This document shows, piece by piece, positions 10,591 through 39,681 of a stretch of DNA of 64,000 nt. The notes beneath the pieces are model-generated. The model saw nothing but the letters and a program-made list of their open reading frames with translations. It had not been told where the DNA came from and made no database searches. Source of the stretch: Prorocentrum cordatum (taxonomy: Eukaryota); assembly GCA_963575745.1 (NCBI GenBank), contig CAUYUJ010000015.1:372001-436000 (forward strand). The letters run 5' to 3'. The position numbers and the translations under genes are program-made. Numbering within the stretch: the stretch's first letter is position 1; each line of letters opens with the position of its first letter.

Positions 10591-12336
10591 TTTTGTTTTC
10601 AATCCGTCCCTTCCCAGCGCCGCTTCTTCATGTTGGATCGTTTAGGCCGAACAGAGGAGAGGCGCCAGGATTGAAAAGTCAGTCCGCGGGAGGATCGGGC
10701 CCTCGTCCTCGCGAAGGGCCGTCGAGCGCGGGCTCTGCAGAGCCCTTGCCTGTTTTTGCTTTTCAGGGCGGCGGCCTCCTGGGCCCCCGATGGCCCACGG
10801 GCCGCGCAGCCCAGGGCCTCAGCGGTGGAGGGAGGTTTGGCTTCGAGCGGTGTGCATCGCAGAGCTTGCGCGCTGCTCGGCCATCCTGCCGCCGAGGCTG
10901 CCGCGGCGATCCGGGCGCCCAGCGCGCTGGCGAAGCTCGGCAAGGGGCCTCTGAAGATGCGAACGTCGCGGGCCCATCACCCAAGCTTTTTGTCAAAAGG
11001 CCCATCACCCAGCCCATCACGCCGCGGGCCCAGAACCCCATGATATGTCCATACGCGCATGTGCGGCAAGGACACAGGCAGCGACGTGGGGCTCCAGCGC
11101 AAAACGAGAGAATGGTAGGTGAACGAGGGGAGAGGTGTTCTTCGCTTCTCGCTCCTCCATCCCGCTTCCCCACCACTGACTGAGGCCCTGCAAAGCACCA
11201 TCTGACGCGTTGGCAGGGCGGGCGCATGTCCACTTCGAACAGCTATACGGATGGAGGGCCGCGTGGCTTCTAAGTGTGGCTCGCGCCTTCGGGCCGCTCG
11301 CATTCATCCCAGAGGCCCCTGACCGCTGCGCGGACGGAGGCCGAGTGATTTTCAAAATGCGGTTGCCGCGTAAGCGTGGCGCAGACTGAGTCTTAGAGAT
11401 CGCAGCAGCTACACGGATGGAGGTCAGCATTGTTCACATTCAGGTGTGGGCTTGAGACCTCTTGACTTGGCATCGCTCGGACGTGTGCATCTTTTTCGGC
11501 TGGGGCCATCGAGAAGCATCCTCGACCATCGGGCCAACAAAACACGCACGAAACCGAAAAATGCACAGGGAAGGGACGTCCGAGCGATGGCGAGTTGAGG
11601 ACTGCACAACCCACCCAACCCCGGCCAGAGCCCTTTGGATCACCAGGTCAGGAGTGGGGTTCCCTGCTGGAGGTGCGGGTGGGTCTTGCTTTCCTCACTT
11701 ATTGTGTTTTCTTATGGCAAGAAGCCGATGAGTGTGTAACCGTTACACGGTTGATGCTCGGCTCTTTCCTGGGGCTCTCGCCAGACAGATCTTTGAGCTC
11801 TATGACCCTCCGCTGTTTTTAAGGTATAGAAAGTACGCATGGCGGATCCGACCCCAACACGGGGCTCTCGCGAGGATGGCAGATTCATGGGGCGCCCATC
11901 CTTCAAGGGAGCGCGTCCTGCATCGAAAACGAACTCCTGCAGTGATTACCGAGGGGGGGCTCGGGGGCGAGAGGATGGACTGCACCATCGTTGGTGCATC
12001 TTGGGCTTGCTCGGGTAGTTCCCCCTTCTCCTGCCTCCCCTCCCCGCTCGCGCGAGGGCGACTTCCACAAGCGGGTCATGGCCGCGCGGGTCCGGCAGGG
12101 CCGCTCGCAGATATCCTGCGGCTCCCGAGAGGCACCAGGCAGAAGCGGAGGAGGAGGAGGAGGAGGAGGAGGACGACGACGACAGAGATAGTTTGACGCG
12201 TGTCACCCTTCTGGGGCTTTGTGGGGCCTCTCGCCGTCAAGCCGCATCGAAATTGTGGCCGCAGCCAGCCCCAGCAGAGGTCAGCGACCCAGACCCAGAC
12301 TTCCGGCGACTCGAAGAACTCGCGCCGATTTGTTTA

Positions 12337-12509
12337 CAGTCGACCCGCAGATTAAGGATGGGCAACCTTCCCAAGGGTACCCTTACGTCCTTGCCTCCTG
12401 GGCCCATCCTTGCACACTTTCGTTGGCCGCGCCCCGCTCGAAACGCTTCGAAATGGGCGTCCAAGGCCCTTGCATCCTTATCGCGCATCCTTACTCTGCG
12501 GGTTGACTG
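12337..12509. mobile_element. MITE with ~24-bp TIRs and TA TSD (Tc1/mariner-pogo-like), copy 1
   Basis: TA|CAGTCGACCCGCAGATTAAGGATG...CATCCTTACTCTGCGGGTTGACTG|TA. Confidence 0.88.
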
Positions 12510-14944
12510 TAATTGTTTCACGTCTCGGGACGGTTTCGGGGACCGACCCCCCATCAATAGAGACATTCGGCTTGACAAGCCAGTCCCATGCAGGGGTCGC
12601 CAGGTGCCGGCGACTCGAAAAAGACAGGTCGGCAAGGGTGCAGGGAGGCTGGAAGCAGGAGAGGCGCCCGGGCTCGGTTGTGTCAGCTGTTCCGGGCCTC
12701 GGGTTCTGCTTTTGTGGGGGCCGGCCGGGGAAGCCCTGGGAAAGGGCACTCCCTCCCTCTAACTTCTCGGTGCTCCTGGCCGCTTCTGCTTTCTGGGGGG
12801 GGGGGGGGGCCCCCGCGCGCGCCCCCCCGAATGGCGCGGCGAGATCTCTGCGTTGCCGCCCGCTTGTGTTACGCCGTGGTTTGGGGGCTCCCGCAGTTGA
12901 TGGGGCTGGTGCACAGTCGGACCGAGGTATAAGATCGAGGTCGGTTCGGGGAGGGTACCCTAGTGTTCTTCTTGTTCGTTGGAGGTCCTTGTGCACCCTG
13001 GGAAGGGTACCCTTGGATGCTCTGTGTGTTTTGTCCGGCGGAGGGTCTCATGTTCTTGAGAGACGTTCTTCTGTCCTGGGTCCGACTGTACATGATGCGC
13101 CGCTGACGGCACCACCACCAGCTCTTTGCCTCCGGGTACTTCGCCTCCGGGTTCCTGTTCAAGGCGTTCCTTTTGCATGCTCTTCGCTCTCGGCACCGCC
13201 TGATCCCGGGGCTTTGCCCTCTCCTGGCCTTGACGTGAGGTCCTTCCGTCTGTTTTCCTTCCTCTGTTAATCAAAGCTGTGCGCGGCCCGCTTAGCTTCG
13301 ACCGGAAGAGGCTCGCTCTCGACCCGCGGATCAAAAAAGTGTTATGCCTTGGATGGGGGGCCACGCTTTGTGTTTTTCCGTCGACCTCTTGTTTCTTAGC
13401 CTCCCCCACGCTGCCGGCGCCTCTGCCAAAGTCTTTGTGGTTGTTCGCAGTGGGCCAGCCTCAGTGTCTGTCGTTCGTGGCCTCGCTGCGTCAGATTCCT
13501 AGTGTTTTTGTTTCGTCGGCCGATCCATTGATACCAGTTGTTTGGGCCGCCCACGCCCCTCCCAGGCCACCGCCGAAATCAATATCTTTTTTCGCTGCGG
13601 GCCAGCGTTTTACGTCGCCATGTCTGGGCCCGACCGCAGGCGGCTTGCCGCCTCCGTCGGCGCGGCGTTGTGTTCGGGCAGGCTGGGGGCCTCGCAGGAG
13701 CATGGCGGGCGCGCTGTTTTATTTTCCTCGGGGCTAGGGCCCGCTTCTGTTCTTTATTTTGCGCGGGCGCAGGCCGATGCCATTTTACCTACTCTAACCT
13801 CTTTGTCGGCTATGATTCCAGCCTCTTACGTTTCCAGCCTCCCTGTATAGAGACGAGGCGGTCTGAGCATGAGGAGGAGAAGGCGCAGGAGGACTCCTTT
13901 TGCACCTCCTCCTCCTCCTCCTCCTCCTCCTCCTCCTCCTCCTGCTCCTCCTCCTCCTCCTGCTCCTCCTCCTGTCAAGGTTTTGAACGATACAGGCCGA
14001 CTGGCGGTTCGGTACTGAAGTGGTGTTCCTGAGGATGAACGCCCACCGAAACGAGGCAGCGGACAGCAACAGCGGCAGCAAGAAGTGGCTGCAGTAGCGA
14101 CAGGGTGCCCACCTCTTCGCGTTGGACACGGCCTGACAGGCTTTTCCTGTCTGCTCCCGGGCCGTCTTGAGTGTGTATTCGGGCCGTCTGGGGGCCGTGC
14201 TGGGGGCATCTTGGGACCGTCTCAGGGCCCTCCTGGGCCATCCTGTGGCTCTCTGGGCCGTCTTCGGGTTCTCCCTGGGCCATCTCGGGGCCCTCTTGGG
14301 CCGTCTCGGGGCCCAGCGGGGGTGCGGCTGCCGCAGGTGCCCCACCGTGCATCGCATGCCGCTGGAAGCCGGGGCCGAAGTCCACGACATAGACACCCAT
14401 GAGAGAACCGTCCAGACGGACATGTCCGAAGAACAGGGCAATTGCGCGCAGCAAGTGCGAGATTGTCGTTTGCTGTCGCAGGGTTGCGGCAGCCTTCGGC
14501 AGGGGAGTGCCAACCAGTCGTGCCGACCGTGCACGTTCCGAACGAGCACCCCTGCGCGGGGGGTTCGCCGCGCCAGCGCAGAGCGGTTATCATGTCGAGT
14601 GCATCGCTGGGGTAATCGACAGCGGAGACGATGTGGCGCACGAGAACGTTTTTTGTCAGCGGGCACAAGCGAGCCGAAGCAGGTGCAGGCGCCGATCGGG
14701 CAACGGGCGGGGCTCGCCAGGAGCGAATTGGGCACGAAAGGACGCGGGGAGAGGGGCAAGAGCCTCTCAGAACGTGAAGTGCATCGCGGGCATACCGAGG
14801 AAGTGCACGAGCGGGGCGCACGAAAACAAGAGGGCAGATCGTTATTGAGGGCGGGTGTTTGAGGCCGCGGCGGGGCTATCTTGGAGACATTGTGGGTTGT
14901 CTCTGCGGGCTCATGCGGGTCACCTTCGGCGTCTGCTGAGGCTG

Positions 14945-14946
<2 letters not shown>

Positions 14947-14993
<47 letters not shown>

Positions 14994-15036
14994 TTATATA
15001 TGTGTGTACACATATACATATACAAATATATGTATC
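14947..15036. repeat. (TA)n microsatellite
   Basis: Read directly from the sequence. Confidence 0.95.
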
Positions 15037-15197
15037 CTGTACGATTTGAGAGGATCTGGAGAGTCTGAGAGTCGTCGTGTGCATAGTCAGGCCATCTTGG
15101 AAGCCGTCTTGGGCAGTTTTGTTTCTGGCGTCTCTCGGGACCGTCCGGGGGCCGTCTTGCGGGCCCTCTTAGGACCTTTTGGGGTCAGATTGTGGTA

Positions 15198-15369
15198 CAG
15201 TCAACCCGCATAGTAAGAATGGGCAACCTTCCCAAGGGTACCCTTAACATCCTTGCCTCCTCGGCCCATCTGCACACTTTCGTTGGCCGCGCCCCGCTCG
15301 GAAAGCTTCGAAATGGGCGTCCGAGGCCCTTGCATCCTTATCGTGCGTCCTTACTGTGCGGGTTGACTG
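15198..15369. mobile_element. MITE, copy 2
   Basis: TA|CAGTCAACCCGCATAGTAAGAATG...CGTCCTTACTGTGCGGGTTGACTG|TA; colinear with copy 1. Confidence 0.88.
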
Positions 15370-15466
15370 TATCTGTCGTGTTGGGGTAATTTGGGGGGCC
15401 GCCTGGGTGGCCTGCTGCTCCCCGCCCTGCTCTTGCTCGTGCTCCTGCTGTTGCTCTTGCTCCTCC

Positions 15467-15545
15467 TTCGACTACTTCAGTAAGGGTTTGCTTGGAAGAG
15501 AGTTGCAGAGTGCGCCGCCCTGCCGCAACCGCGGGGCTCAAGCTT
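15467..15545 (+). repeat. Terminal repeat A1 (79 bp)
   Basis: Identical to 21998-22076. Confidence 0.95.
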
Positions 15546-15579
15546 TCACGGGCGGGCGCACGCTTCTCGCGCGCGTCGC

Positions 15580-16056
15580 ATGCCCGACCTGCCGGTGGCT
15601 GTCGCGCACTGGGCAGGTCAGGCCACTTTCGCCTGGCTTGGATCCTGCCCGAGGTGCCCCGAGTCTGTCTGCGGCTCCCTCGTGTGCGGAGAGGTGCACT
15701 GCCCCCCGGCGCCAGCGTGCCCGCAGTGCCCCGCGTGCCCAGGCTGCCCCGGGGCCCCCGAGCCAGCCTGCACCACCCCTGCGGCAGCGCCGCCGTGGCT
15801 CCCTGGCTGGCTCGCGTCCGCTGGACTCCTGCTGCTGGGCGCGGCCGGAGGAGCTGTGGTGCCTGCCCTCGCGCTGGGCACCTGGCAGGTGTTGCGCTGG
15901 CTGACGGCTCAGTGTCCCCGCCGCGGGACTGATGGCGGCGGCGATGCCCCCACCGATACTACGACCCTGGCTGTGGCTCCGGTACCAGGGCGAGGCGCTG
16001 TACCACCAGCGGCGCGTTGTCGGGGTGCTGGCCTCCTCGGCGACTCAAGTGACTGA
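15580..16056 (+). CDS. ORF0: 158-aa Cys/Pro-rich protein with a predicted transmembrane segment
   Basis: First ATG after A1; CPRC..CPQCPACPGCP followed by WLPGWLASAGLLLLGAAGGAVVPALALGTW; overlaps the gag-like ORF. Confidence 0.6.
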   Translation: MPDLPVAVAHWAGQATFAWLGSCPRCPESVCGSLVCGEVHCPPAPACPQCPACPGCPGAPEPACTTPAAAPPWLPGWLASAGLLLLGAAGGAVVPALALGTWQVLRWLTAQCPRRGTDGGGDAPTDTTTLAVAPVPGRGAVPPAARCRGAGLLGDSSD

Positions 16057-17497
16057 CGCCGACGAGGTCATCGGCGTCTCGCCGGATGGCGACCCCGAGC
16101 AAATCGACCTCTCCGGGGCCTCGCGGGACATCGAGGCCTGGCGCTGGTCGGAGGTCTTCCGTCCTCCCCCGCCTGGTATCCCGCGAGGTCAGGTGTACCG
16201 CTTCCAGCAGGAGCCCGACGCCGCCGCCCTCGCCACGATGCGCGCGGACGCCGAGGCGTTCTGCGACGCCGCCTTCCTCGCTCGCGAGCGGGCGGCAGGG
16301 CAGCCAGCGGTGCTCCCGGCGACGGGCAGCCTGGTCGACGCCGTGTGGCCCGCGCCCGCGGCGCCAGCCGCGGCCGCCGCTGCGGCCCCCGCAGCCCCCG
16401 GGCTGCCGCTGGCGCTCCCTGGGATGGCGCCCCCCCCGGGCCCTCCGGCCCTGGGCGCCCCCGCCGCGGCCGCCGCCCCGCTGGCCCTGCTCGGAGCACC
16501 CCCAGCCGCGCTGCCTGGCGCTGCTCCACCGGGGGCGGTGGTGGCGGCCCCGCTGGCCGCCGCGGCGCCTGGAGCCGCCGCCCCGGCCGCATTCCCCGCA
16601 GCCATGGCTGCTGGCGCCCCTGCAGCTGGGGCCCCGCTGGCCGCAGGACTGGGCATGGTGGCAGCGGCACCCTACCCGGTGATGGTCACGGTTGAGACGA
16701 CGACGTACGGCCCGCGTGGGACTCCTGTGGCTCCGAACGGCACGGAGGTCATGTCTGGCGACGTCGGCATCCACACGGCTCCTGGCTATGGTGGCTGGTT
16801 GGTTCGTACGATTCGCTCCGACCAGGTGCAGGATTTCAAGGGCCTCGAGGCAGCGGGTGACGCCCGCCTCCTCAGCGTGATCGCGGTGAATGGTCAACGC
16901 TCCCGTCGAGCCTGGCGTGACGTGGCCAGCTCGCTATCCGAGATCGCCTTCCCCGACTGGGCGATAGAGGGCCCCCGCGCCACCCTTTGGTGCTGCCGAT
17001 GGATCGACCGTCGGGGCGGGGGCCCTCTCGACCACCACCGCTTCTTCGTGATGGTCCACCGCCTCCACAAGGACAGCTGGGGTGTCCCGATGCACGAGTT
17101 CGGGATGAAGGCCCTCGAGACCCTCGGCGCCTACGACTCGCTCGACCTGCCGAAAGTCGCGGGGATCGAGTCGCTGATGCGCGAAGTGCAGCTGGTCGAG
17201 TATGCGTATGCCAAGCACGACGGGTTTGCTGGGGCCAGCACCGAGGTGGCCGACGGCGACCTGAATGCCAAGAAGAAGGGCCGTGGCCGTGGCCGCGGAC
17301 GAGGAGGCGCCGCGGGCGCCTTCGGCTACCTGGACGAGCACACCGCCTTCCGGGGGCAGCGTGAGACGGGAGACGCCATGGTGTGTCCCGCCCTGGTCGA
17401 GTGGGTTGGCAAGCAAGTCGAACGCGATGCCAACATTTTAAAGCAGGTCCGAAAAGCGCGAGAAGAGCGGGCTGATGCGGGCCATGGTCCAAATTAG
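15932..17497 (+). CDS. gag-like ORF1 (521 aa)
   Basis: Long ORF with GC3-biased codons at the gag position; folded-looking N and C domains separated by an Ala/Pro linker. Assigned by position. Confidence 0.75.
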   Translation: MAAAMPPPILRPWLWLRYQGEALYHQRRVVGVLASSATQVTDADEVIGVSPDGDPEQIDLSGASRDIEAWRWSEVFRPPPPGIPRGQVYRFQQEPDAAALATMRADAEAFCDAAFLARERAAGQPAVLPATGSLVDAVWPAPAAPAAAAAAAPAAPGLPLALPGMAPPPGPPALGAPAAAAAPLALLGAPPAALPGAAPPGAVVAAPLAAAAPGAAAPAAFPAAMAAGAPAAGAPLAAGLGMVAAAPYPVMVTVETTTYGPRGTPVAPNGTEVMSGDVGIHTAPGYGGWLVRTIRSDQVQDFKGLEAAGDARLLSVIAVNGQRSRRAWRDVASSLSEIAFPDWAIEGPRATLWCCRWIDRRGGGPLDHHRFFVMVHRLHKDSWGVPMHEFGMKALETLGAYDSLDLPKVAGIESLMREVQLVEYAYAKHDGFAGASTEVADGDLNAKKKGRGRGRGRGGAAGAFGYLDEHTAFRGQRETGDAMVCPALVEWVGKQVERDANILKQVRKAREERADAGHGPN

Positions 17498-20474
17498 TTT
17501 TGGACGCACGGCGGTCGCTCCCCCTGGCGCCCGCTGTTCGCATTCTGTGGGGCTGGGCGCGCCGTGGCAGGCGCGCTTCGATTTTCTGCCAGCAGAGGCG
17601 CAGGGCCGCGCCATCATCTTCCCCTTCCTCCTGTCCTCCTCGTGCTCTGGCCATCGCGTGGCGCCTGGTCCCATGTCGAGAGCGTGCCCTCGTGATATTT
17701 TTCCCCTGCCTGTGCCGGCCTCCTCTGACCCCCCTAGGACCTCTGTCTCGCGCAAAGTTCGGAGGAGATTCGAGGTCCACCGTCAGTCAGCATCCTTGGT
17801 CTCCGAGGTGGCTTCGGTCTTGAATCAGTTACACGGTCAACACGGTTCGGACAGCGGTCAAACAGTATCGGCGGCCCAGAAGGCGTGTTTGGAGCATATC
17901 CACCGTGCGGCTCTACGATTTGGCAAGCCCCCGGCGGACCTCACCTCTGCAGGGGCCTTACGAGAGCTCCGCGTTAACCCAGGCTACTCCGTGACGAGCA
18001 GCCCCGTGGTTCTCATCAGCGAGGCCAATATCAACAGAGTTGCCCTTCCTCCTGTCGGGTGGTCACCTGCTGGAATTTTGCAGCTGGGCGGCTCCGTCGG
18101 CGAAGCCATAGTTGATGAGCTGCATGCGCTACGGCGTCCTGACCCAGCACTTGCAGATACTTCTACACCTCCTCCCAGAATTTACCACGATCCTCATCTC
18201 CGTTCTCATCCTCGGCTTTATGCGCGCTTCCTGCTTCGCCTGAGTCAGTCTAACCTTGTGACGTGGAGGCGAGAGTGTACATCCTGCGTGGGAGTCTTCT
18301 TTGCGGCTAAAAAGAACGGTGACCTTCGTTTGATCCTCGACGGGCGTCAGGCAGGCGAGCATTTCGATGAGCCCCCTCACGTTGACCTAGCTACTGGGTC
18401 GGCGTTCTCGGCCTTGGAGGTTGACGGTGGGGGGCCTATCTATGTTGGGGAGACGGACATTGAGAATGCCTTCTATGGGATTCAGCTACCTCCGGAGTTC
18501 TGGCAGTTTTTCGGGCTACCTCGAGTACGAGCTGGGGTCCTAGGTATCACTACCGACAGCGCTGGAGGCCCCTTGAGGGCCAGCGACTGGGTTACCCCGT
18601 GCTTTACCGCCGTCCCAATGGGATGGAAACACAGTCTCTGGATCTGTCAGCGTATCATGGAGTTCCGGGCCCGCACCAACACGTTGGCCTCCCCCAGTCT
18701 GGCTTTTGACGATGCGCACCTTCCTGTCCGTCTGGTTCGATCTTCCACGCAGGTATTACATACAGAGTACGTTGACAACTTCGTTGCCCTTGGCCTCTCG
18801 AAGGACCCCACGTATGCCGTGACTGACTCCGTCGATCGCAGTCTCCGAGACGCTGGGTTTCGCACCCGCGGTCCGACGGTGTCGGCTGGAGGGGGTGTTC
18901 TCGGTTGGACCTTCGACCAGGACGCCCCGACGATCGGGATCAGTCACCGCATAGGCTGGCGAATACGACTAGGGTGTCTGGCTGTCGCGGACATGAAGTA
19001 CGCCTCGGGGGATCTTGTCAGGGTCGTCGTGTCACACTTCACGTCTCGGGCTCTGCTGCGCCGTGAATTACTCTCATGTCTGCAGGCTTCGTATTCTTTC
19101 ATCGAGTCGTCCGGCCACCACACGCGTGTTCTCTGGAGCTCAGTCAAACGGGAGCTTCGTTGGTGTGCCGCGCTGATCGCACTCGCTTTCCGCGACGTCA
19201 ATGCCGCCTGGTCCCCCATGGTCTACTGCACCGACGCGTCCTGGTGGGGCGCAGGGGTCGTCAGGGGCATCCGCAGCGTCCAGGAAGTCCAGCACGTGGG
19301 CCACTATACGGAGCGCTTGCGTTACTCAGCGGCCCACGAGGCCATCCTCAAGCCACGGGACTCGGCTCTGAAGTGTTCGGTCAGCGGCGGGGTCACCGCC
19401 TCCCCCCAGGACTCCGAGATCCCGAAGGCCCCCTTCCCCGAGGTCCCAGAGTCGGTCTACGGCGGCGACTGGTCCCTCGTTATGTCCCAGAAGTGGTCCC
19501 GCAAGGAGGCCCAGGTTGTCTTGGAGGCTCGGTCGCTCGTGCTCACCGTGAAGAACATAGTTCGGAACACTCAGAACTTCGGTTGCAAGCACCTGGTCTT
19601 GAACGATTGCATGGCTCCCATTCTTGCGTTTACCAAGGGACGATCGTCGAGCCCTGGGGTCATACAGTGCTGCCGTCAGACGGCTGCCATGTTGCTGGCC
19701 TCTAACTCGTATATCGCCTGGAGATGGGCCCCATCAGAATCCAACGCAGCCGATGCCGCTTCTCGAGGTCGGGCAGGAGCTTTCCGATTCAATGCTGCGC
19801 CGAATCCAGTTGCAGCACTCGGGCCCGCGGGGCTCGAGGTCCTCCGAGATGGCTTCCTCGGCGACAGCCGTGACGGCGGGCCCGCAGCTGGTGCCGTGCC
19901 CCCTGGGCGCCCACGCCGGGGGCCTGCCCCGTGCGGAGGTGGCGCCCAACCTCCCGGCGCCCTCCTCGCGGCGCCCATGCCGCGAGCGGGTGCCCCACGG
20001 CCCCGGCGCTCAGGAGGCGAGGGCCGCCAAGCGGGCGAGGGCCATCCCCGCTGCCGCAGAGGCCCCACCGCCGCCAGGCGCCCCGACCTTCCTCGAGCTG
20101 CAGAGCGTCTCGCCGAAGGCCGCCCAGGACTACCAGACGTACGCGACGGCGTTCTACCAGTGGGGCCAGGAGCGCCACCTGCTCAGCGACATCGCGACCT
20201 CGCTGAGGTCGGCGCCGGCGATCGACCTAGCCCTCGTGACGTACATGCACGAGAAGTTCTTCGCAGGCGAGCTCTCCTACGTGCCGACGAAGCTGATCGC
20301 GGGTCTCCGCTACTTCTGGACATACCCCAACGGTGCGCCCCTCGAGCTGCCCCGCAGCTTTCGCGCCTTGACGGGCTGGAAGCGCATGGTGCCCGCCCAG
20401 AGCCGCCTGCCGTACCCCTGGGTCGCCCTGTGCCTGCGCGCGCAACACATGATTGCCGCGGGCGGGCCAGGTGA
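17475..20474 (+). CDS. Pol: reverse transcriptase plus RNase H (currently ends just after the 4-bp duplication)
   Basis: RT motifs LRLILDGR, DIENAFY, PMGW, YVDN; RNase H motifs TDAS, LEARS, LNDC, WAPSESNAADAASR. Alternative start at ATG 17673. Confidence 0.92.
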   Translation: MRAMVQISFGRTAVAPPGARCSHSVGLGAPWQARFDFLPAEAQGRAIIFPFLLSSSCSGHRVAPGPMSRACPRDIFPLPVPASSDPPRTSVSRKVRRRFEVHRQSASLVSEVASVLNQLHGQHGSDSGQTVSAAQKACLEHIHRAALRFGKPPADLTSAGALRELRVNPGYSVTSSPVVLISEANINRVALPPVGWSPAGILQLGGSVGEAIVDELHALRRPDPALADTSTPPPRIYHDPHLRSHPRLYARFLLRLSQSNLVTWRRECTSCVGVFFAAKKNGDLRLILDGRQAGEHFDEPPHVDLATGSAFSALEVDGGGPIYVGETDIENAFYGIQLPPEFWQFFGLPRVRAGVLGITTDSAGGPLRASDWVTPCFTAVPMGWKHSLWICQRIMEFRARTNTLASPSLAFDDAHLPVRLVRSSTQVLHTEYVDNFVALGLSKDPTYAVTDSVDRSLRDAGFRTRGPTVSAGGGVLGWTFDQDAPTIGISHRIGWRIRLGCLAVADMKYASGDLVRVVVSHFTSRALLRRELLSCLQASYSFIESSGHHTRVLWSSVKRELRWCAALIALAFRDVNAAWSPMVYCTDASWWGAGVVRGIRSVQEVQHVGHYTERLRYSAAHEAILKPRDSALKCSVSGGVTASPQDSEIPKAPFPEVPESVYGGDWSLVMSQKWSRKEAQVVLEARSLVLTVKNIVRNTQNFGCKHLVLNDCMAPILAFTKGRSSSPGVIQCCRQTAAMLLASNSYIAWRWAPSESNAADAASRGRAGAFRFNAAPNPVAALGPAGLEVLRDGFLGDSRDGGPAAGAVPPGRPRRGPAPCGGGAQPPGALLAAPMPRAGAPRPRRSGGEGRQAGEGHPRCRRGPTAARRPDLPRAAERLAEGRPGLPDVRDGVLPVGPGAPPAQRHRDLAEVGAGDRPSPRDVHAREVLRRRALLRADEADRGSPLLLDIPQRCAPRAAPQLSRLDGLEAHGARPEPPAVPLGRPVPARATHDCRGRAR

Positions 20475-21070
20475 TGGAGGCATTGGCCAGCATCATCACC
20501 TTCACGTTCTACCTGCGCCCCAGCGAGTGCCTGCGTCTGCAGGGGAAGCTGATCACAGCTCCTGCCCAGGCGCCTCGCCGTGTGCAGGACGGCCAGGGCC
20601 AGATGCGGCCCCTCCTCCTGCACCCGCAAGAGGGCGGCGCCACGTCCAAGACGGGCCGCGTGGACGAGAGCCTGCTAGCGGACAACCCCCTGTTCCCGTG
20701 GTTGCCGCAGGTGCTGGGCCTCCCGAAGGCCAAGTTCCCCCACTCGCTGGTCTTCAACTTCGGCCAGGCGCAGTGGGGCCGGGCCTTGAAGGGCGCGGCG
20801 TCCGCTTGCGGGCTCACTGCCCTGGGCGACCCGTGTCTGCACCGCCTCCGCCACGGAGGGGTGTCGCACGACCTCCTCTTCAAGGCTCGCACTCTCCTGA
20901 GCGCCAAGAAGCGCGGCCGCTGGGCCAGCGACCGCAGCCTGGCCCGCTACGAGCGGGGCGGGCGCATCAACGAGCAGCTGAGCCTCTTGTCCCAGGACAT
21001 CCTCATCGCCGCCGACCTGGCGGCCTCGAACATTGGCGTAACCCTCGTGAATGCCTTCCGCTCTTTGTGA
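19849..21070 (+). pseudogene. Tyrosine recombinase, frameshifted by a GCGG duplication at 20458-20465 (405 aa when repaired)
   Basis: N part FLELQSVS..DY..F..LPRSFRALTGWKR; C part YLRPSE (R), SKT (K), HRLRHGG (HxxR), GRW, RYER (Y). Confidence 0.9.
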
Positions 21071-21825
21071 AGCAGCGGGGCGTCCCCGCGGCCCTCGAGA
21101 TCTTCGCTGGCTCCGGGCACCTGTCTGAGGTTTGGCGCCGATCCATGAGGTCGGCTGGCCACCCTGTTTTCGAGATCGACATACGGCACGGGGTTGAGCA
21201 TGACATGTGCAGTAAGGCCCTGGTCAAGCTTATTCGGGGCTGGGTCCGAGGTGGGCTCGTGACGGCCGTGTTCATGGGTACGCCGTGTAATTCCTTCTCT
21301 CTTGCACGGAACCGCCCTAACGGTCCCCCGACCCTCAGGACGTCCGAGTACCCCGAGGGCCTCCCCAAGCTCTCAGACAGCTGCCGCAAAGAAGTCGACC
21401 TCGGAAACTCCCTGTGTGCCGCGAGTTTCAGTATCTTCCGTGAGTGCCGTTTGCTCGGGTGCCCAGTGATCGTCGAGAACCCTGCGAGCTCTCATCTTTG
21501 GAGACAACCCCAGGTCCTCAAGGTTCGGCAGCTTCCTGGTGTTTCAGAGGTGGTTTTCGACATGTGCGCTTTCGGCACCATCTGGAGAAAATATACCCGA
21601 CTTCTTGGGTGTCACGTTGATCTTCGACCACTGGATATTCGATGTAGAGGCAAAGGTGTATGTACGTTCACTGGCTCCCCGCATTTTACCCTGGAGATGA
21701 AAGGCTCCAAGATCGTATCAAATCAGGCGGAGGTTTACCCCTTCTCTGTATGCCGAGCCATTGCGAGAATATTCCGTGCTGCTCTAGTGCAACAACGTGC
21801 TAATAAACTTCGGCCTCATGTTTGA
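21070..21825 (+). CDS. C5-cytosine DNA methyltransferase domain
   Basis: LEIFAGSG (motif I), FEID (II), GTPCNSFS (IV, catalytic PC), VENP (VI), DMCAFG..RKYT (VIII-like); stop at 21823-21825. Confidence 0.9.
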   Translation, partial: KQRGVPAALEIFAGSGHLSEVWRRSMRSAGHPVFEIDIRHGVEHDMCSKALVKLIRGWVRGGLVTAVFMGTPCNSFSLARNRPNGPPTLRTSEYPEGLPKLSDSCRKEVDLGNSLCAASFSIFRECRLLGCPVIVENPASSHLWRQPQVLKVRQLPGVSEVVFDMCAFGTIWRKYTRLLGCHVDLRPLDIRCRGKGVCTFTGSPHFTLEMKGSKIVSNQAEVYPFSVCRAIARIFRAALVQQRANKLRPHV

Positions 21826-21877
21826 GTCCAGAACGGTGTTCGCGGAGGTTTTACTGTTCCTGGGCTTTACACTGGTT

Positions 21878-21998
21878 CGGATTTTATACAGTACTGTTTC
21901 CTGGTCTGTACGTTGTCCCCTTCCCTGCAGTCTCGGGGGCAAGCACATCCCAACACAGATCGTGTCCCTGGCGACGGAGAAAACATCTGGCCATGCAT
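21878..21998 (+). repeat. Terminal repeat B1 (121 bp)
   Basis: Matches 22126-22246 with 2 mismatches. Confidence 0.95.
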
Positions 21999-22076
21999 TC
22001 GACTACTTCAGTAAGGGTTTGCTTGGAAGAGAGTTGCAGAGTGCGCCGCCCTGCCGCAACCGCGGGGCTCAAGCTT
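21998..22076 (+). repeat. Terminal repeat A2
   Basis: Identical to A1; abuts B1 and shares one T with it. Confidence 0.95.
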
Positions 22077-22125
22077 CCACCCAACCCTCCCTCCCTTCTG
22101 TAAAGCTGGCCGAGGCATTGGCAGG

Positions 22126-22246
22126 CGGATTTTATACAGTGCTGTTTCCTGGTCTGTACGTTGTCCCCTTCCCTGCAGTCTCGGGGGCAAGCACATCCCA
22201 ACACAGATCGTGTCCCTGGCTACGGAGAAAACATCTGGCCATGCAT
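22126..22246 (+). repeat. Terminal repeat B2
   Basis: Copy of B1, followed directly by (CCT)n. Confidence 0.95.
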
Positions 22247-25200
22247 CCTCCTCCTCCTCCTCCTCGTTCCTTCTCCTCCTCTTCCTCCTCCTCCTCCTCC
22301 TCCTCGTTCCTCCTCGATCCTCCTCCTCCCCCTCCCTATTCTCCCCCCCCCCCCCCCCCCGCCGAACGCCCCCAAGCCCACGAGCCCCGATCCGATCCGA
22401 GAGCCCTGCCCTCTGCCCTCCCCTGCGGCCGCCCGCCCGCCCCCCCCCCATCCCCCCCCCCTCGGGTGCCGCACCGGCTGCCGCCCATCCTCCTGGAGGA
22501 GGAGGAGGAGGAGGAGGAGGAGGAGGAGGAGGAGGAGGAGGAGGAGGGCAGAGCCGCATGGATGTCAAGGTCCGTGGGCGGCCGAGGACTCTTTTTGAGC
22601 CTCTGCTTCATCTGCGTGGCCTTGGGCGGACGAGTGTTGGCGGCGCGCGCGGGCGGGCGTGCGGGGGGGGGGGGGGGCAGCAGGGTCCGCCTTCTGAGAC
22701 GGCGGGGGGGGGCCTCTTCGAAGGAGGCGGCGGTGGTGCCTCTCAGAGGCGATCGGCCCCTTCTCGGACGATTCCAGGGAGTCTTCGCAGAGCACAAGGA
22801 GGACTCTGAGAGGCAAGGTGCGTTCTTAGAGGGTCCCACCCTCGTCCCCTTCCGCGAGCCGTCGCCAATGGTCGCTCGGATCTGAGCAGGGGGAAAACAG
22901 GACGGGCCTTTGGGCCCCGCCTCGGGCTGGGGATCCTCACGGAGATCGGCCAGGCCCGAAGAGATGCCACGCAAACAGCTGGGTCGAGAATTCCGTTCGT
23001 GGTGTTCTCCCTGGAGGTCTCCCGAGCTCCCCGGGGGCCCCCCTGGAGATCTCTGGGCGCCCCCAGGAGGCCTGGATGCGGCCGACGACCTCCACAAGCC
23101 CAGGTCCTCTGCAATCGGGACGCTGAAGAAAGAACCGCTCTGGGTTCAGGAAGGGCTCTGGTTTCTGTAGGCCGTTCCTCAGATCTGCGTCGGGGAACCG
23201 AGTCGGGGTTCACTGAAAGTTCGGCCAACATGCAACGCCTCCCGTTCTGCGACAGTGCCCCGGTGCAACGTTGTCAGTGGCGTCGTCGAGAATAGGGGTC
23301 GGCACTTCCTCAGCTCGAATTCGCAATGGCGCTCCCGCCTAAGACGTCTTGGTGGAAGCACGAAGCGGGCCAAAGCTTTCGTAGCGCCGATGTATGACAG
23401 CAGGATGACTGTATCCACCTCCTCGCGGACTACCTGCCAGACCTTATCTGAATACCCAAAGTTCGGGTTGTGGGGGGGGGAGTACGGTTTCCATATGTGC
23501 TTTGTCAACGTTCCCCGACGCCACTCCCCCCACACTGGGAACGGAGGAAAAACCAAGAAAACACAATGAAAGACCAAAACAAACAAAGAAATCAAAGGTT
23601 GGGAGCCGAAGAACAGCCAAACACCTAAGGAATAACACCCATACAAAAAATTGTCAGATAGAATTCCCTGGTCGACCGTCAGATTATATTAGAGTGGTTT
23701 TGCTTGTTTTTGTTGCTGTTTTGCTGCTTGGGTTTTTTTTTGGGGGGGTCTGATCCGTTTTCAGTTTCGTTCGGCCTCCACAAAAGGATGCCTATTGAAA
23801 ACGCGCAAACCGCCCAGGCCTGCATCGGGTCTGGCGTCCCTCCTCCTCCTCCTCCTCCTCCTCCTCCTCCTCCTCCTCCTCCTCCTCCTCCTCCTCCGCC
23901 TCCCGCGCTGCCGCCCTCCGCCCCGGCCGCTGCCCTCCCCGCTCGCTCGCCCCTCTCCGCTCCCGCTCACCCTGCATCCCCACGGCACCCGCTCCGCCCC
24001 CCGCCTCCCTCCCCCACTCCGCCCCGCTCCCTGCCCCCCCCCCCATCCCCCAGCGCAGCGCCCCCTCTTGCTTCCCGGGATCCACAGTCAGCTCCTCCCC
24101 CCCTCCGCCTGCAGCCTGGGCTCGGAACAACGGCGGGCAGCGACCCGCCCGCGTCCGCCCGTGCCTCCCAGGGGCCCGTGCCTCCCAGGGGACGCGCTCC
24201 GACAGAAAACGAGTAGTGAGCGGGAGGGCGAGCGAAGCAGGGGACCGCCCCCCCCCCCTTCACGCTCGGAGGCCCCGCGGAGCGGAGCGGCGGCGCGCGC
24301 TCCAGCCACCGCGCGATCAGCTCCAGGCGGCGGCCGCAGGCCCGCGCAGCAGGGCGGGGAGGGGCATGGCGGCTCGAGAGGCAGCCAGTTGGGCCCAGGC
24401 GTCCCAGGTGGGCTCAGAGGATCGCGCGGCATCGGCACTGCAGCGGCGCTGCGGCGCGATCCTCCGACCCCAGTCTGCTCGAACCCCGCTGGAGAGGCAG
24501 CCGGGGAGGCACCGCGCCCGTGACTGCAGCGGCTCAGAGGTGCGCGCGCTTCGCCTGGCCAGCGCTGCGCCGTTCGCCTCCGGAGCGAGGCGAGCGGCGC
24601 CGCCCGACGGCGTCGCCATCCTGCCGCTCGCCAGGTCCAGGTCCGCCGAGATCGGCCTCGCGGGATCTCCTGGTCCGGAGGTGGCCCGGCTGCTCGCTCG
24701 TGGTGTGCCAGTCGTGGGCTGCTCGTGTGCCCTGCCCTGCTGGTGTGGGCGCTGGTGCAGATGTCAGCCGATCTCTGGCAGCTTCGGGGCGCTAGGGCCG
24801 TCGTTTCGGGGGAACGCGCCAGCGTCGGTCCCGAGGGGCCAGGAAACCCCGCGATCCCCGCCTTCGCCTCTCCGAGCTCGCCACTGGCGTCGAGCCTTTA
24901 TTTTCGCGCGCGCGTGCTCTTGATGGGGGCCCGACGGTGTGTCGATAGCTTGTGAACGCTGTGCCTATTTTGCCGGCGACCTGTCAGTGGTGCCCCGATG
25001 GTGTCCCGTCGATTTGATTGGGTAGGTGTTTTGATGGTGGCCTGATGTTGGAGCGGAGGTGCCGCGATGTTGCCATCAAGCAAGTGTGAGTTATCGAAGA
25101 CGCCTACGGCGAAAGACCGCCGCCCTCTGCCTTTTTGGAAACGCCTATGTGGCCAGACGTTGGGACGAAGTCTTGCCGAGCTGTTGGACTTTGCGTTCCC

Positions 25201-39659: not shown

Positions 39660-39681
39660 TTCGTAGCCATGTTGGCTCAAG
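39660..39681 (+). other. Dinoflagellate spliced-leader (DinoSL) relic
   Basis: TTCGTAGCCATGTTGGCTCAAG versus DCCGTAGCCATTTTGGCTCAAG, 20/22. Confidence 0.85.

Follow-up and report, generated by a model that had tools for sequence, protein, structure and literature searches.

Can a complete recombinase gene lie inside the coding sequence of a retrotransposon polymerase, in another frame, with both frames kept open? This question was raised by an element at positions 15467–22245 of a 64,000-nt stretch of Prorocentrum cordatum DNA (contig CAUYUJ010000015.1, assembly GCA_963575745.1; hereafter the window, to the plus strand of which all coordinates refer). An earlier interpretation made from the letters of the DNA only (the sequence-only reading) had proposed that the polyprotein open reading frame (ORF) of this element, Pol, would in its intact form run through the entire tyrosine recombinase (YR) gene and into a DNA methyltransferase. 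The present analysis of related loci, predicted folds and sister copies makes it very probable that the element is a split-direct-repeat YR retrotransposon, the intact members of which encode a gag-like ORF1, a Pol with a methyltransferase-like domain and a YR wholly nested in the Pol spacer. The architecture and its conservation, a deficit of stop codons, the folds and sister copies without a 4-nt insertion that disrupts the window copy are all reported below.

The intact element would be expected to yield three products. The first would be the gag-like ORF1 protein, and the second a Pol of ~1380–1500 aa composed of reverse transcriptase (RT), RNase H, a spacer of ~400 aa and a compact C5-methyltransferase-like domain. 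The third would be a YR of ~400 aa, situated wholly inside the spacer in the +1 frame, with its own ATG just after RNase H and its stop at the first methyltransferase residues.

Organization of the element in the window

Self-comparison showed 15467–22245 to be one 6.8-kb YR retrotransposon, the only copy of the element in the window, with split direct repeats in the order A1...B1-A2-B2. Its contents were a gag-like ORF, an ORF for RT and RNase H, a YR divided between two frames and a C-terminal domain missed by Pfam. From stop to stop, the plus-strand ORFs cover 15905–17497, 17442–20474 (frame 0, first ATG at 17475), 19603–21825 (frame 1) and 20453–21070 (frame 2). This ORF list bears out the frames that had been assigned from the sequence, namely Pol in frame 0, the YR in frame 1 and then frame 2, and the methyltransferase in frame 1. 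The window is GC-rich (0.51–0.72 across 2-kb bins). The features of the element are as follows:

15467..15549, plus strand: split direct repeat A1, the 5′ end of the element, 98.8% identical to 21998–22080
15905..17497, plus strand: gag-like ORF1, spanning 530 codons between stops in frame 2, with a long low-complexity middle rich in Ala/Pro (ORF list and translation)
17673..19790, plus strand: RT and RNase H of Pol in frame 0, beginning at the ATG that agrees with where the relatives start (blastp/tblastn and aligned motifs)
19792..20457, plus strand: N-terminal half of the YR in frame 1, aligning with the N-halves of 16 intact YRs; the same bases in frame 0 are the first part of the Pol spacer
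20458..20465, plus strand: tandem GCGG-GCGG with one 4-nt copy extra, breaking the YR and Pol-methyltransferase frames (sequence and contig comparison)
20465..21070, plus strand: C-terminal catalytic half of the YR in frame 2, stop codon at 21068–21070 (translation and conserved columns)
20462..21039, plus strand: second part of the Pol spacer, as now in frame 1, overprinted on the YR C-half (open frame 19603–21825; aligns with spacers of long relatives, e.g. P0025)
21040..21825, plus strand: C5-cytosine-methyltransferase-like domain in frame 1, stop codon at 21823–21825 (relatives, profile and fold)
21878..21997, plus strand: split direct repeat B1 (98.3% identity between 21878–21998 and 22126–22246)
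21998..22080, plus strand: split direct repeat A2, pairing with A1
22126..22245, plus strand: split direct repeat B2, the element's 3′ end, pairing with B1; the right flank is a TCC microsatellite

The presence of RT and RNase H in one Pol ORF, and of a tyrosine recombinase in place of a DDE integrase, assigns the element to the YR (DIRS-order) retrotransposons. The repeat order A1-coding-B1-A2-B2 is that of the Ngaro/PAT type and was found both in the window and in relatives: A...B-A-B recurred in loci L007, L034, L037, L046 and L014, and B pairs in L022, L030 and L073. The element termini are direct repeats, and the inverted terminal repeats with an internal complementary region that define DIRS1-like elements were not found in it; the inverted repeats of 14800–22800 (25 of 39 seen) were flanking low-complexity runs of TCC/GGA or CCC/GGG and of TA. 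ORF1 gave no Pfam match. In tblastn its C-terminal half (aa ~260–523) matched, with E values as low as 8e-58, an ORF that many related loci carry upstream of Pol, and conservation of ORF1 in relatives was confined to this half.

Nested genes in related loci

Among the 150 best matches to the methyltransferase-like domain, 19 were proteins of 1309–1461 aa with the domain at the C-end, all 19 of which matched the window frame-0 RT-RNase H at the N-end. This is the order of RT, RNase H, linker and methyltransferase that the sequence-only reading had foreseen. Some of the long relatives, e.g. P0025, aligned continuously through the frame-0 and then the frame-1 spacer of the window. A total of 68 long database proteins carried the domain, including Skav216249 (a Symbiodinium kawagutii gene model of 1378 aa) and proteins of Polarella glacialis and Symbiodinium sp. 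CCMP2592; PF00145 is on record for none of these 68.

A metagenome scan with a 5-sequence domain alignment as query gave 80 loci with domain identities of 28–43%, except for L001 at 92%. Matches to RT, the YR C-half and the methyltransferase were found together in 35 of the 80 loci. In 17 of these 35, one ORF extended from the RT start (13 loci) or the contig end (four loci) to the end of the methyltransferase, with a complete YR ORF nested in the +1 frame, and the prediction that intact relatives keep the Pol frame free of stops across the YR was thus confirmed for all 17 continuous-ORF loci. The ORF in the methyltransferase frame spanned all YR homology in 29 of the 35. Remaining copies had the indels or stops typical of decay; in L025, RT-RNase H reads into the YR frame, as one frameshift would give. 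Relative to the methyltransferase frame, the YR frame was +1 in 44 of the 51 loci with both matches, +2 in five and the same in two.

In 11 full-length elements, Pol measured 1377–1503 aa and contained a spacer of 384–427 aa that was coextensive with a YR of 383–426 aa. The YR ATG was located 0–42 nt after a stop in its own frame in most loci, just past the RNase H motif WxPSExNxADxxSR, and the YR stop was located from 77 nt before to 97 nt after methyltransferase motif I.

Identity of the encoded domains

The C-terminal domain of the window element contains FAGSG as motif I, TPC as motif IV, ENP as motif VI and a Cys/His cluster. A full phmmer search gave 5393 relatives with E ≤ 0.001, of which 125 had E ≤ 1e-30. 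The nearest named proteins were Prorocentrum cordatum gene models, which showed 95% identity along 41% of the domain length. Alignment of 36 sequences showed the glycine of motif I (G24) to be kept in at least 90%, and the motif IV Cys (C83), the Glu-x-Pro of motif VI (E146/P148) and the cluster C176/C202/C208/H215 to be invariant. A profile of the domain matched DNMT2 across motifs I–IV (E 0.0021). The AlphaFold (AF2) model of the domain was confident (pLDDT 93.3, pTM 0.91); all matches listed by Foldseek were C5 methyltransferases (best E 1.1e-4), and so were all 50 entries listed by VIA-align, with Z scores of 12.6 for M.HhaI (root-mean-square deviation 4.2 Å over 200 residues), 12.2 for DNMT1 and 11.3 for DNMT3A. 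By these structure matches, Dnmt3 cannot be told apart from bacterial or Dnmt1-type enzymes.

Of the 36 family members, PF00145 reached only 4 with E ≤ 1 (best 0.019), and it gave no match in seven related Pols at E 0.01 or better. Because PF00145 misses most members, the label 'C5-methyltransferase-like' is used here. The window domain stays below the Pfam threshold for C5 methyltransferases and has their fold and catalytic motifs I, IV and VI. Thus, the identification as a DNMT from sequence was right as to fold and motifs and needed qualification as to distance: this is a compact, remote C5-cytosine-methyltransferase-like domain, undetected by PF00145 in the window, with putative catalysis. 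As Pfam sees almost nothing of the domain, methyltransferase-bearing dinoflagellate elements may be undercounted in PF00145-based screens. Viral contigs scanned with the window domain gave five matched stretches, none of which was a relative.

The catalytic residues of the YR, which the sequence-only reading had listed as complete, were all found: the Arg of YLRPSE, the Lys of SKTG, RHGG, RGRW and the Tyr of ARY. They match columns conserved in at least 90% of the YR alignment (Arg of YLRPGE, Lys of SKxG, RH, Trp of RGRW and Tyr of RRY), and the two window halves aligned end to end, without gaps, with 16 intact relatives. Pfam searches of the window ORFs gave nothing usable for the YR or the methyltransferase, apart from a weak Ndc10_N match on the YR N-half (E 0.0011), and phmmer searches of the window domains against PDB sequences found nothing. 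The AF2 model of the YR of the intact relative L034 (pLDDT 81.1) matched Cre recombinase (E 8e-7, TM ~0.6 on the target, ~330–350 columns) and also XerH, Tn1549 Int and lambda Int.

For Pol, blastp/tblastn alignments to long relatives started at residues 8–13 of the relatives, adjoining Met 17673. RVT_1 stayed below threshold, matching weakly in the window (Pfam, E 0.072) and with E values of 9e-6 to 1.4e-3 in four of seven related Pols. Between the window and 11 relatives, alignment was found for RT motif A, RT motif C (Y-V-D-N in the window) and the RNase H motif, and the DEDD-type motifs of RNase H were conserved in the 12 aligned sequences. The usual second catalytic Asp of RT motif C is replaced family-wide, yet many near-identical family copies exist.

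Selection on the open Pol frame

The stop deficit was measured by synonymous shuffling of the YR, with stops counted in the Pol frame (2000 shuffles for the window and 1000 for each relative locus). One explanation of the open frame is that it is a by-product of high GC content at third codon positions (GC3), the methyltransferase being a separate product with its own start or a frameshift at the YR end. The window itself is compatible with this: its YR has a GC3 of 0.91, only 2.74 stops were expected and 4.5% of the shuffles were stop-free, with 0 stops observed against 1.93 expected for the second spacer part over the YR C-half. The caveat attached to the sequence-only reading, that GC3 makes stops rare in this frame anyway, therefore holds for the window taken alone. 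The 17 diverged metagenome loci (YR GC3 0.54–0.86, most loci at 49–57% GC) contradict such a by-product, as the deficit against synonymous shuffles that had been anticipated was found in all of them: 0 stops were observed in the Pol frame across the YR vs. 4.7–19.3 expected. None of the 1000 shuffles was stop-free in 15 of the 17 loci, and the fraction was 0.004 in L046 and 0.001 in L003. The third frame of the same loci contained 10–30 stops, close to expectation. The window deficit alone is weak; the absence of stops in diverged relatives shows that the open frame is more than chance, and that selection maintains the two frames open across the bases they share, as expected of an overprinted pair.

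A separate start for the methyltransferase was also considered. Between 20900 and 21130 the methyltransferase frame of the window has no in-frame ATG, only a GTG at 21067 and two CTG codons. The claim that no ATG stands close upstream of motif I was correct for the window and for 6 of the 11 intact relatives, which have none within 45 nt (two have none within 300 nt), and did not extend to the other five, in which separate initiation would be possible. Absence of a near ATG from six of the 11 means that separate initiation is not a conserved option. Many database entries are stand-alone proteins of ~250 aa, as separate production of the methyltransferase would predict; these could instead be gene-caller truncations, and one of them, P0005, starts where the window has GTG. 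Besides, the methyltransferase is in the RT frame, one frame behind the YR, in the 44 of 51 loci mentioned above. Taken together, a GC3 by-product with a separately made methyltransferase is highly improbable.

The amino acid sequence of the spacer was far less conserved than the other parts of Pol. Mean pairwise identity was 0.189 for the spacer vs. 0.335 for the YR encoded by the same bases, 0.40 for RT-RNase H and 0.44 for the methyltransferase domain, and the spacer is rich in G, S, R, A and P. Third positions of YR codons are first positions of spacer codons, and were found to be as diverged as the third positions of RT and the methyltransferase domain. No constraint on spacer amino acids was seen, and selection seems to act only against stops.

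Several results weigh against the organization proposed here and temper the confidence placed in it. The stop deficit of the window copy is not significant by itself, and the 17 loci of the shuffle test had been picked for a continuous ORF, whereas without such picking the whole ORF was continuous in 17 of 35 and the YR region in 29 of 35. Selection against stops is all that points to translation of the spacer frame, and third-position divergence (for the closest pair, 0.581 in the YR vs. 0.553 and 0.597 in non-overlapping domains) is near saturation and gives little power to test constraint on spacer amino acids. An in-frame ATG lies 12–42 nt upstream of motif I in five of the 11 intact relatives. 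As to the domains, the window domain had no PF00145 match up to E 10, none of seven related YRs was recognized by PF00589 with E ≤ 0.01, and a YR profile searched against PDB sequences found no recombinase, the only match being an irrelevant one at E 0.088. Finally, RT motif C is Y[VA]DN, not YxDD, in the window (18780–18800 region) and in all 11 aligned intact relatives.

The 4-nt duplication of the window copy

The sequence GCGGGCGG occupies 20458–20465, and the GCGG tandem duplication previously noted at this site is present. By coordinate arithmetic without the 4 nt, Pol and the methyltransferase form one frame of 1448 codons from ATG 17475 or 1382 codons from ATG 17673, and the YR one of 405 codons from ATG 19849. 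These are the lengths that the sequence-only reading had given; the Pol-methyltransferase figures can be retained, and for the YR the ATG at 19792 (MLRR...) fits the conserved ML[PRK]R start of the relatives better than that at 19849, so that the protein may be 424 aa rather than 405 aa long. In the family alignment, the YR halves abut without a gap at the duplication site.

Sister copies were compared by aligning contigs (not raw reads) of four public sequencing runs to 15400–22300 at a likeness of at least 85%. The 4 nt at 20458 were absent from three contigs of run X1 (depth 31.7 of 42.6) and from the sole contig of run X3 (5.6 of 5.6), and were retained in a contig of run X2 (0 of 3.4 left out), contig depth being no measure of copy number. 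Sister copies without the duplication, postulated beforehand, thus exist, and its absence from most of the sister contig depth indicates that the duplication is private to a minority of copies. A single 4-nt tandem duplication (GCGG) in the overlap shifts and inactivates both the YR and the Pol-methyltransferase of the window copy; owing to the complete nesting, one 4-nt slip kills two genes at once. Among the 40 contig variants listed, 11 fell within the overlap (19840–20941), and none of these creates a stop in either frame, a number too small to judge constraint.

The 4-nt difference might instead be an assembly or sequencing error in the window and not a real mutation of this copy. The sequence GCGGGCGGGC is a short low-complexity run, and most of the X1 depth is without the 4 nt, as such an error would produce. 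About a quarter of the X1 depth and the sole X2 contig at the site match the window, and since the window form is seen in contigs of both runs, both forms seem to exist as DNA. An error is therefore unlikely, and a duplication carried by this copy is the preferred explanation.

Proposed expression and origin of the spacer

The YR probably represents the older, sequence-constrained reading of the shared bases, and the spacer reading seems to be selected only for the absence of stops, letting ribosomes that translate Pol reach the methyltransferase. Such ribosomes would read through the spacer to give a fusion protein, the methyltransferase-like domain of which might act on the nucleic acid of the element during or after reverse transcription and methylate the new cDNA. 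With its AUG more than 2 kb into Pol, the YR would need an mRNA of its own or some mechanism of internal entry; it may be translated from a separate, possibly trans-spliced or subgenomic, mRNA, and in a trans-splicing host a spliced-leader acceptor would be one candidate for its expression.

It could also be argued that the long ORF is translated with the spacer as a mere passage, the methyltransferase being released afterwards, or that the ORF is open only to escape mRNA surveillance, so that tethering to RT is not what is selected. The lack of detectable amino acid constraint in the spacer would fit this, and a second architecture (see below), in which this domain forms the N-end of a ~988-aa Pol-like ORF, indicates that a fixed position relative to RT is not required. 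Release of the domain would find no protease in the element, as a protease domain was found in no ORF examined, and the in-frame conservation of a folded domain with complete catalytic motifs is most simply explained by co-translation with Pol. A mere passage is accordingly regarded as improbable, and a Pol that carries its methyltransferase-like domain through the spacer is preferred.

As to how the preferred arrangement originated, we tentatively suggest that the spacer is a de novo bridge, in which an ancestral Pol was extended through a pre-existing YR in the –1 frame and captured a downstream methyltransferase, the bridge having since been selected only for the absence of stops; this origin is a possible one, held with much less confidence than the organization itself. 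If it is true, a complete and catalytically intact enzyme gene has stayed nested in a polyprotein across Prorocentrum, Polarella and Symbiodiniaceae, and expression of the YR would have to begin at an internal start, on an mRNA of its own that perhaps receives a spliced leader by trans-splicing. The arrangement makes internal YR expression in trans-splicing organisms a testable question.

Comparison with known elements

DNMT-bearing DIRS elements of Symbiodinium, which the sequence-only reading had given as established, are described as SymbioDIRS-Dnmt3 by de Mendoza et al. (2018, PMC5890265), with a DNMT in the Pol ORF together with RT, a separate YR ORF and A-coding-B-A-B repeats; the RT is divergent and barely seen by Pfam, and two coexisting structures differ in domain order. 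PF00145 served to find the DNMTs of these elements, which were assigned to the Dnmt3 clade, and methylation of the cDNA on synthesis was already proposed for them (PMC5890265). The window element shows the same defining features (a DNMT-type domain in the Pol ORF with RT, the YR in a separate ORF and A-coding-B-A-B repeats), as a dinoflagellate DIRS-like element with a divergent RT, and two domain orders were seen here too, RT-RNase H-...-methyltransferase and a ~988-aa methyltransferase-...-RNase H ORF. It differs in that PF00145 misses the window domain and in that the host is Prorocentrum, not a member of the Symbiodiniaceae. Overlap or nesting of the YR is not mentioned in the main text and readable supplements of PMC5890265 (figures and the main supplementary PDF lie outside this statement), where the word 'overlap' is used a single time in the main text, of transcription, and a single time in those supplements, of a plot. 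Compared by description, the window family is probably the SymbioDIRS-Dnmt3 family or a close relative.

Long Pol/YR overlaps were reported for half of 28 annotated DIRS1-like elements (Piednoel et al., 2011, PMC3266345). As in the window element, Pol of these elements carries a methyltransferase after RT-RNase H, and the YR ORF can overlap Pol considerably in another frame. According to the same account, the catalytic YR domain of DIRS1-like elements is in the non-overlapping 3′ end, whereas here Pol encloses the entire YR together with its catalytic residues; their methyltransferase is a Dam-like adenine methyltransferase, here the fold is that of C5 methyltransferases; and they have inverted repeats with an internal complementary region, here the repeats are split direct ones (PMC3266345). 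In a 2026 preprint on Dam-bearing elements, DAM and integrase are given as typically in separate ORFs.

Ngaro- and PAT-like elements share with the window element the split direct repeats A1...B1-A2-B2 and the order gag, RT-RNase H, YR (PMC9210276, PMC3783388). Some Ngaro elements contain an extra enzyme ORF, for an SGNH hydrolase, after the YR, and Xenopus Ngaro families have overlapping ORFs, ORF overlaps being noted for YR elements generally in both accounts. The difference is that here the extra enzyme is fused to Pol via the alternative frame of the YR.

Thus, a methyltransferase in Pol of dinoflagellate DIRS-like elements, partial Pol/YR overlaps and the idea of cDNA methylation are known already. 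Full-text literature searches, to which figures and the largest supplement of PMC5890265 did not belong, found no description of a fully nested YR, and as far as could be checked the complete, conserved nesting of the YR in a stop-free spacer is an undescribed variant. It represents a large and statistically clean case of complete gene nesting in eukaryotes, with ~1.2 kb read in two frames, one sequence-constrained and the other only kept open, and shows how a retrotransposon can fuse a new enzyme to its polymerase without moving the essential gene in between.

Second architecture, gene models and flanking sequences

A second architecture was found among the metagenome loci, with an ORF of ~985–1027 aa, the N-end of which holds the methyltransferase-like domain and the C-end of which matches RNase H (L040, L048, L051, L053 and L065; also L042–L044, L058, L064 and L066). 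This ORF was preceded by ORFs of ~430–490 aa and ~600 aa, one of which has a CCCH zinc finger, and a YR profile found no YR in these loci. One ORF of the second architecture passed the PF00145 threshold (24.6 vs. 22 bits).

Gene callers that forbid overlaps split or truncate nested Pol/YR ORFs. The public dinoflagellate gene models P0155 (1800 aa), P0072 (948 aa) and P0222 (1907 aa, named UPF1) merge element pieces across frames or with host genes and are likely to be annotation artefacts; the model named UPF1 contains the methyltransferase-like domain, and in P0072, a partial P. cordatum model, RT, YR and methyltransferase are read in one chain. Chains with the YR in frame (P0072, P0149 and P0008) were considered as a third architecture and set aside, being taken as models spliced across frames or as shifted copies.

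A 662-nt contig of run X3 (depth 4.6) contained B1, then A, then 5′ internal sequence of the element, 21809–21997 being joined to 15467–15939 (a jump back of 6531). Such a junction is what the element would give in a circular or tandem form; alternatively, at this depth, it could be an assembly path through the 83-nt repeat.

Lying within a CTC/TCC microsatellite, the element is flanked by simple repeats: a (TA)n run ~450 nt upstream (14947–15020), CTC/TCC runs to its left and right and, in the right region 22246–22560, a run of GGA at 22495–22547. A 176-nt direct repeat with 91.6% identity, perhaps a different repeat family or a fragment, was found at 15196–15371, just upstream of the element, and at 12335–12511, a further 2.9 kb upstream. 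No Rfam family reached its gathering score across the whole window.

On the plus strand at 39661–39681, the 21-mer TCGTAGCCATGTTGGCTCAAG showed 2 mismatches in 21 positions to the dinoflagellate spliced leader, with 0 matches expected in 100 shuffles. Like the 95% identity of the methyltransferase-like domain to a P. cordatum protein, it fits a dinoflagellate host. The 21-mer could be a leader left over from a retroposed gene, or could belong to a leader gene.

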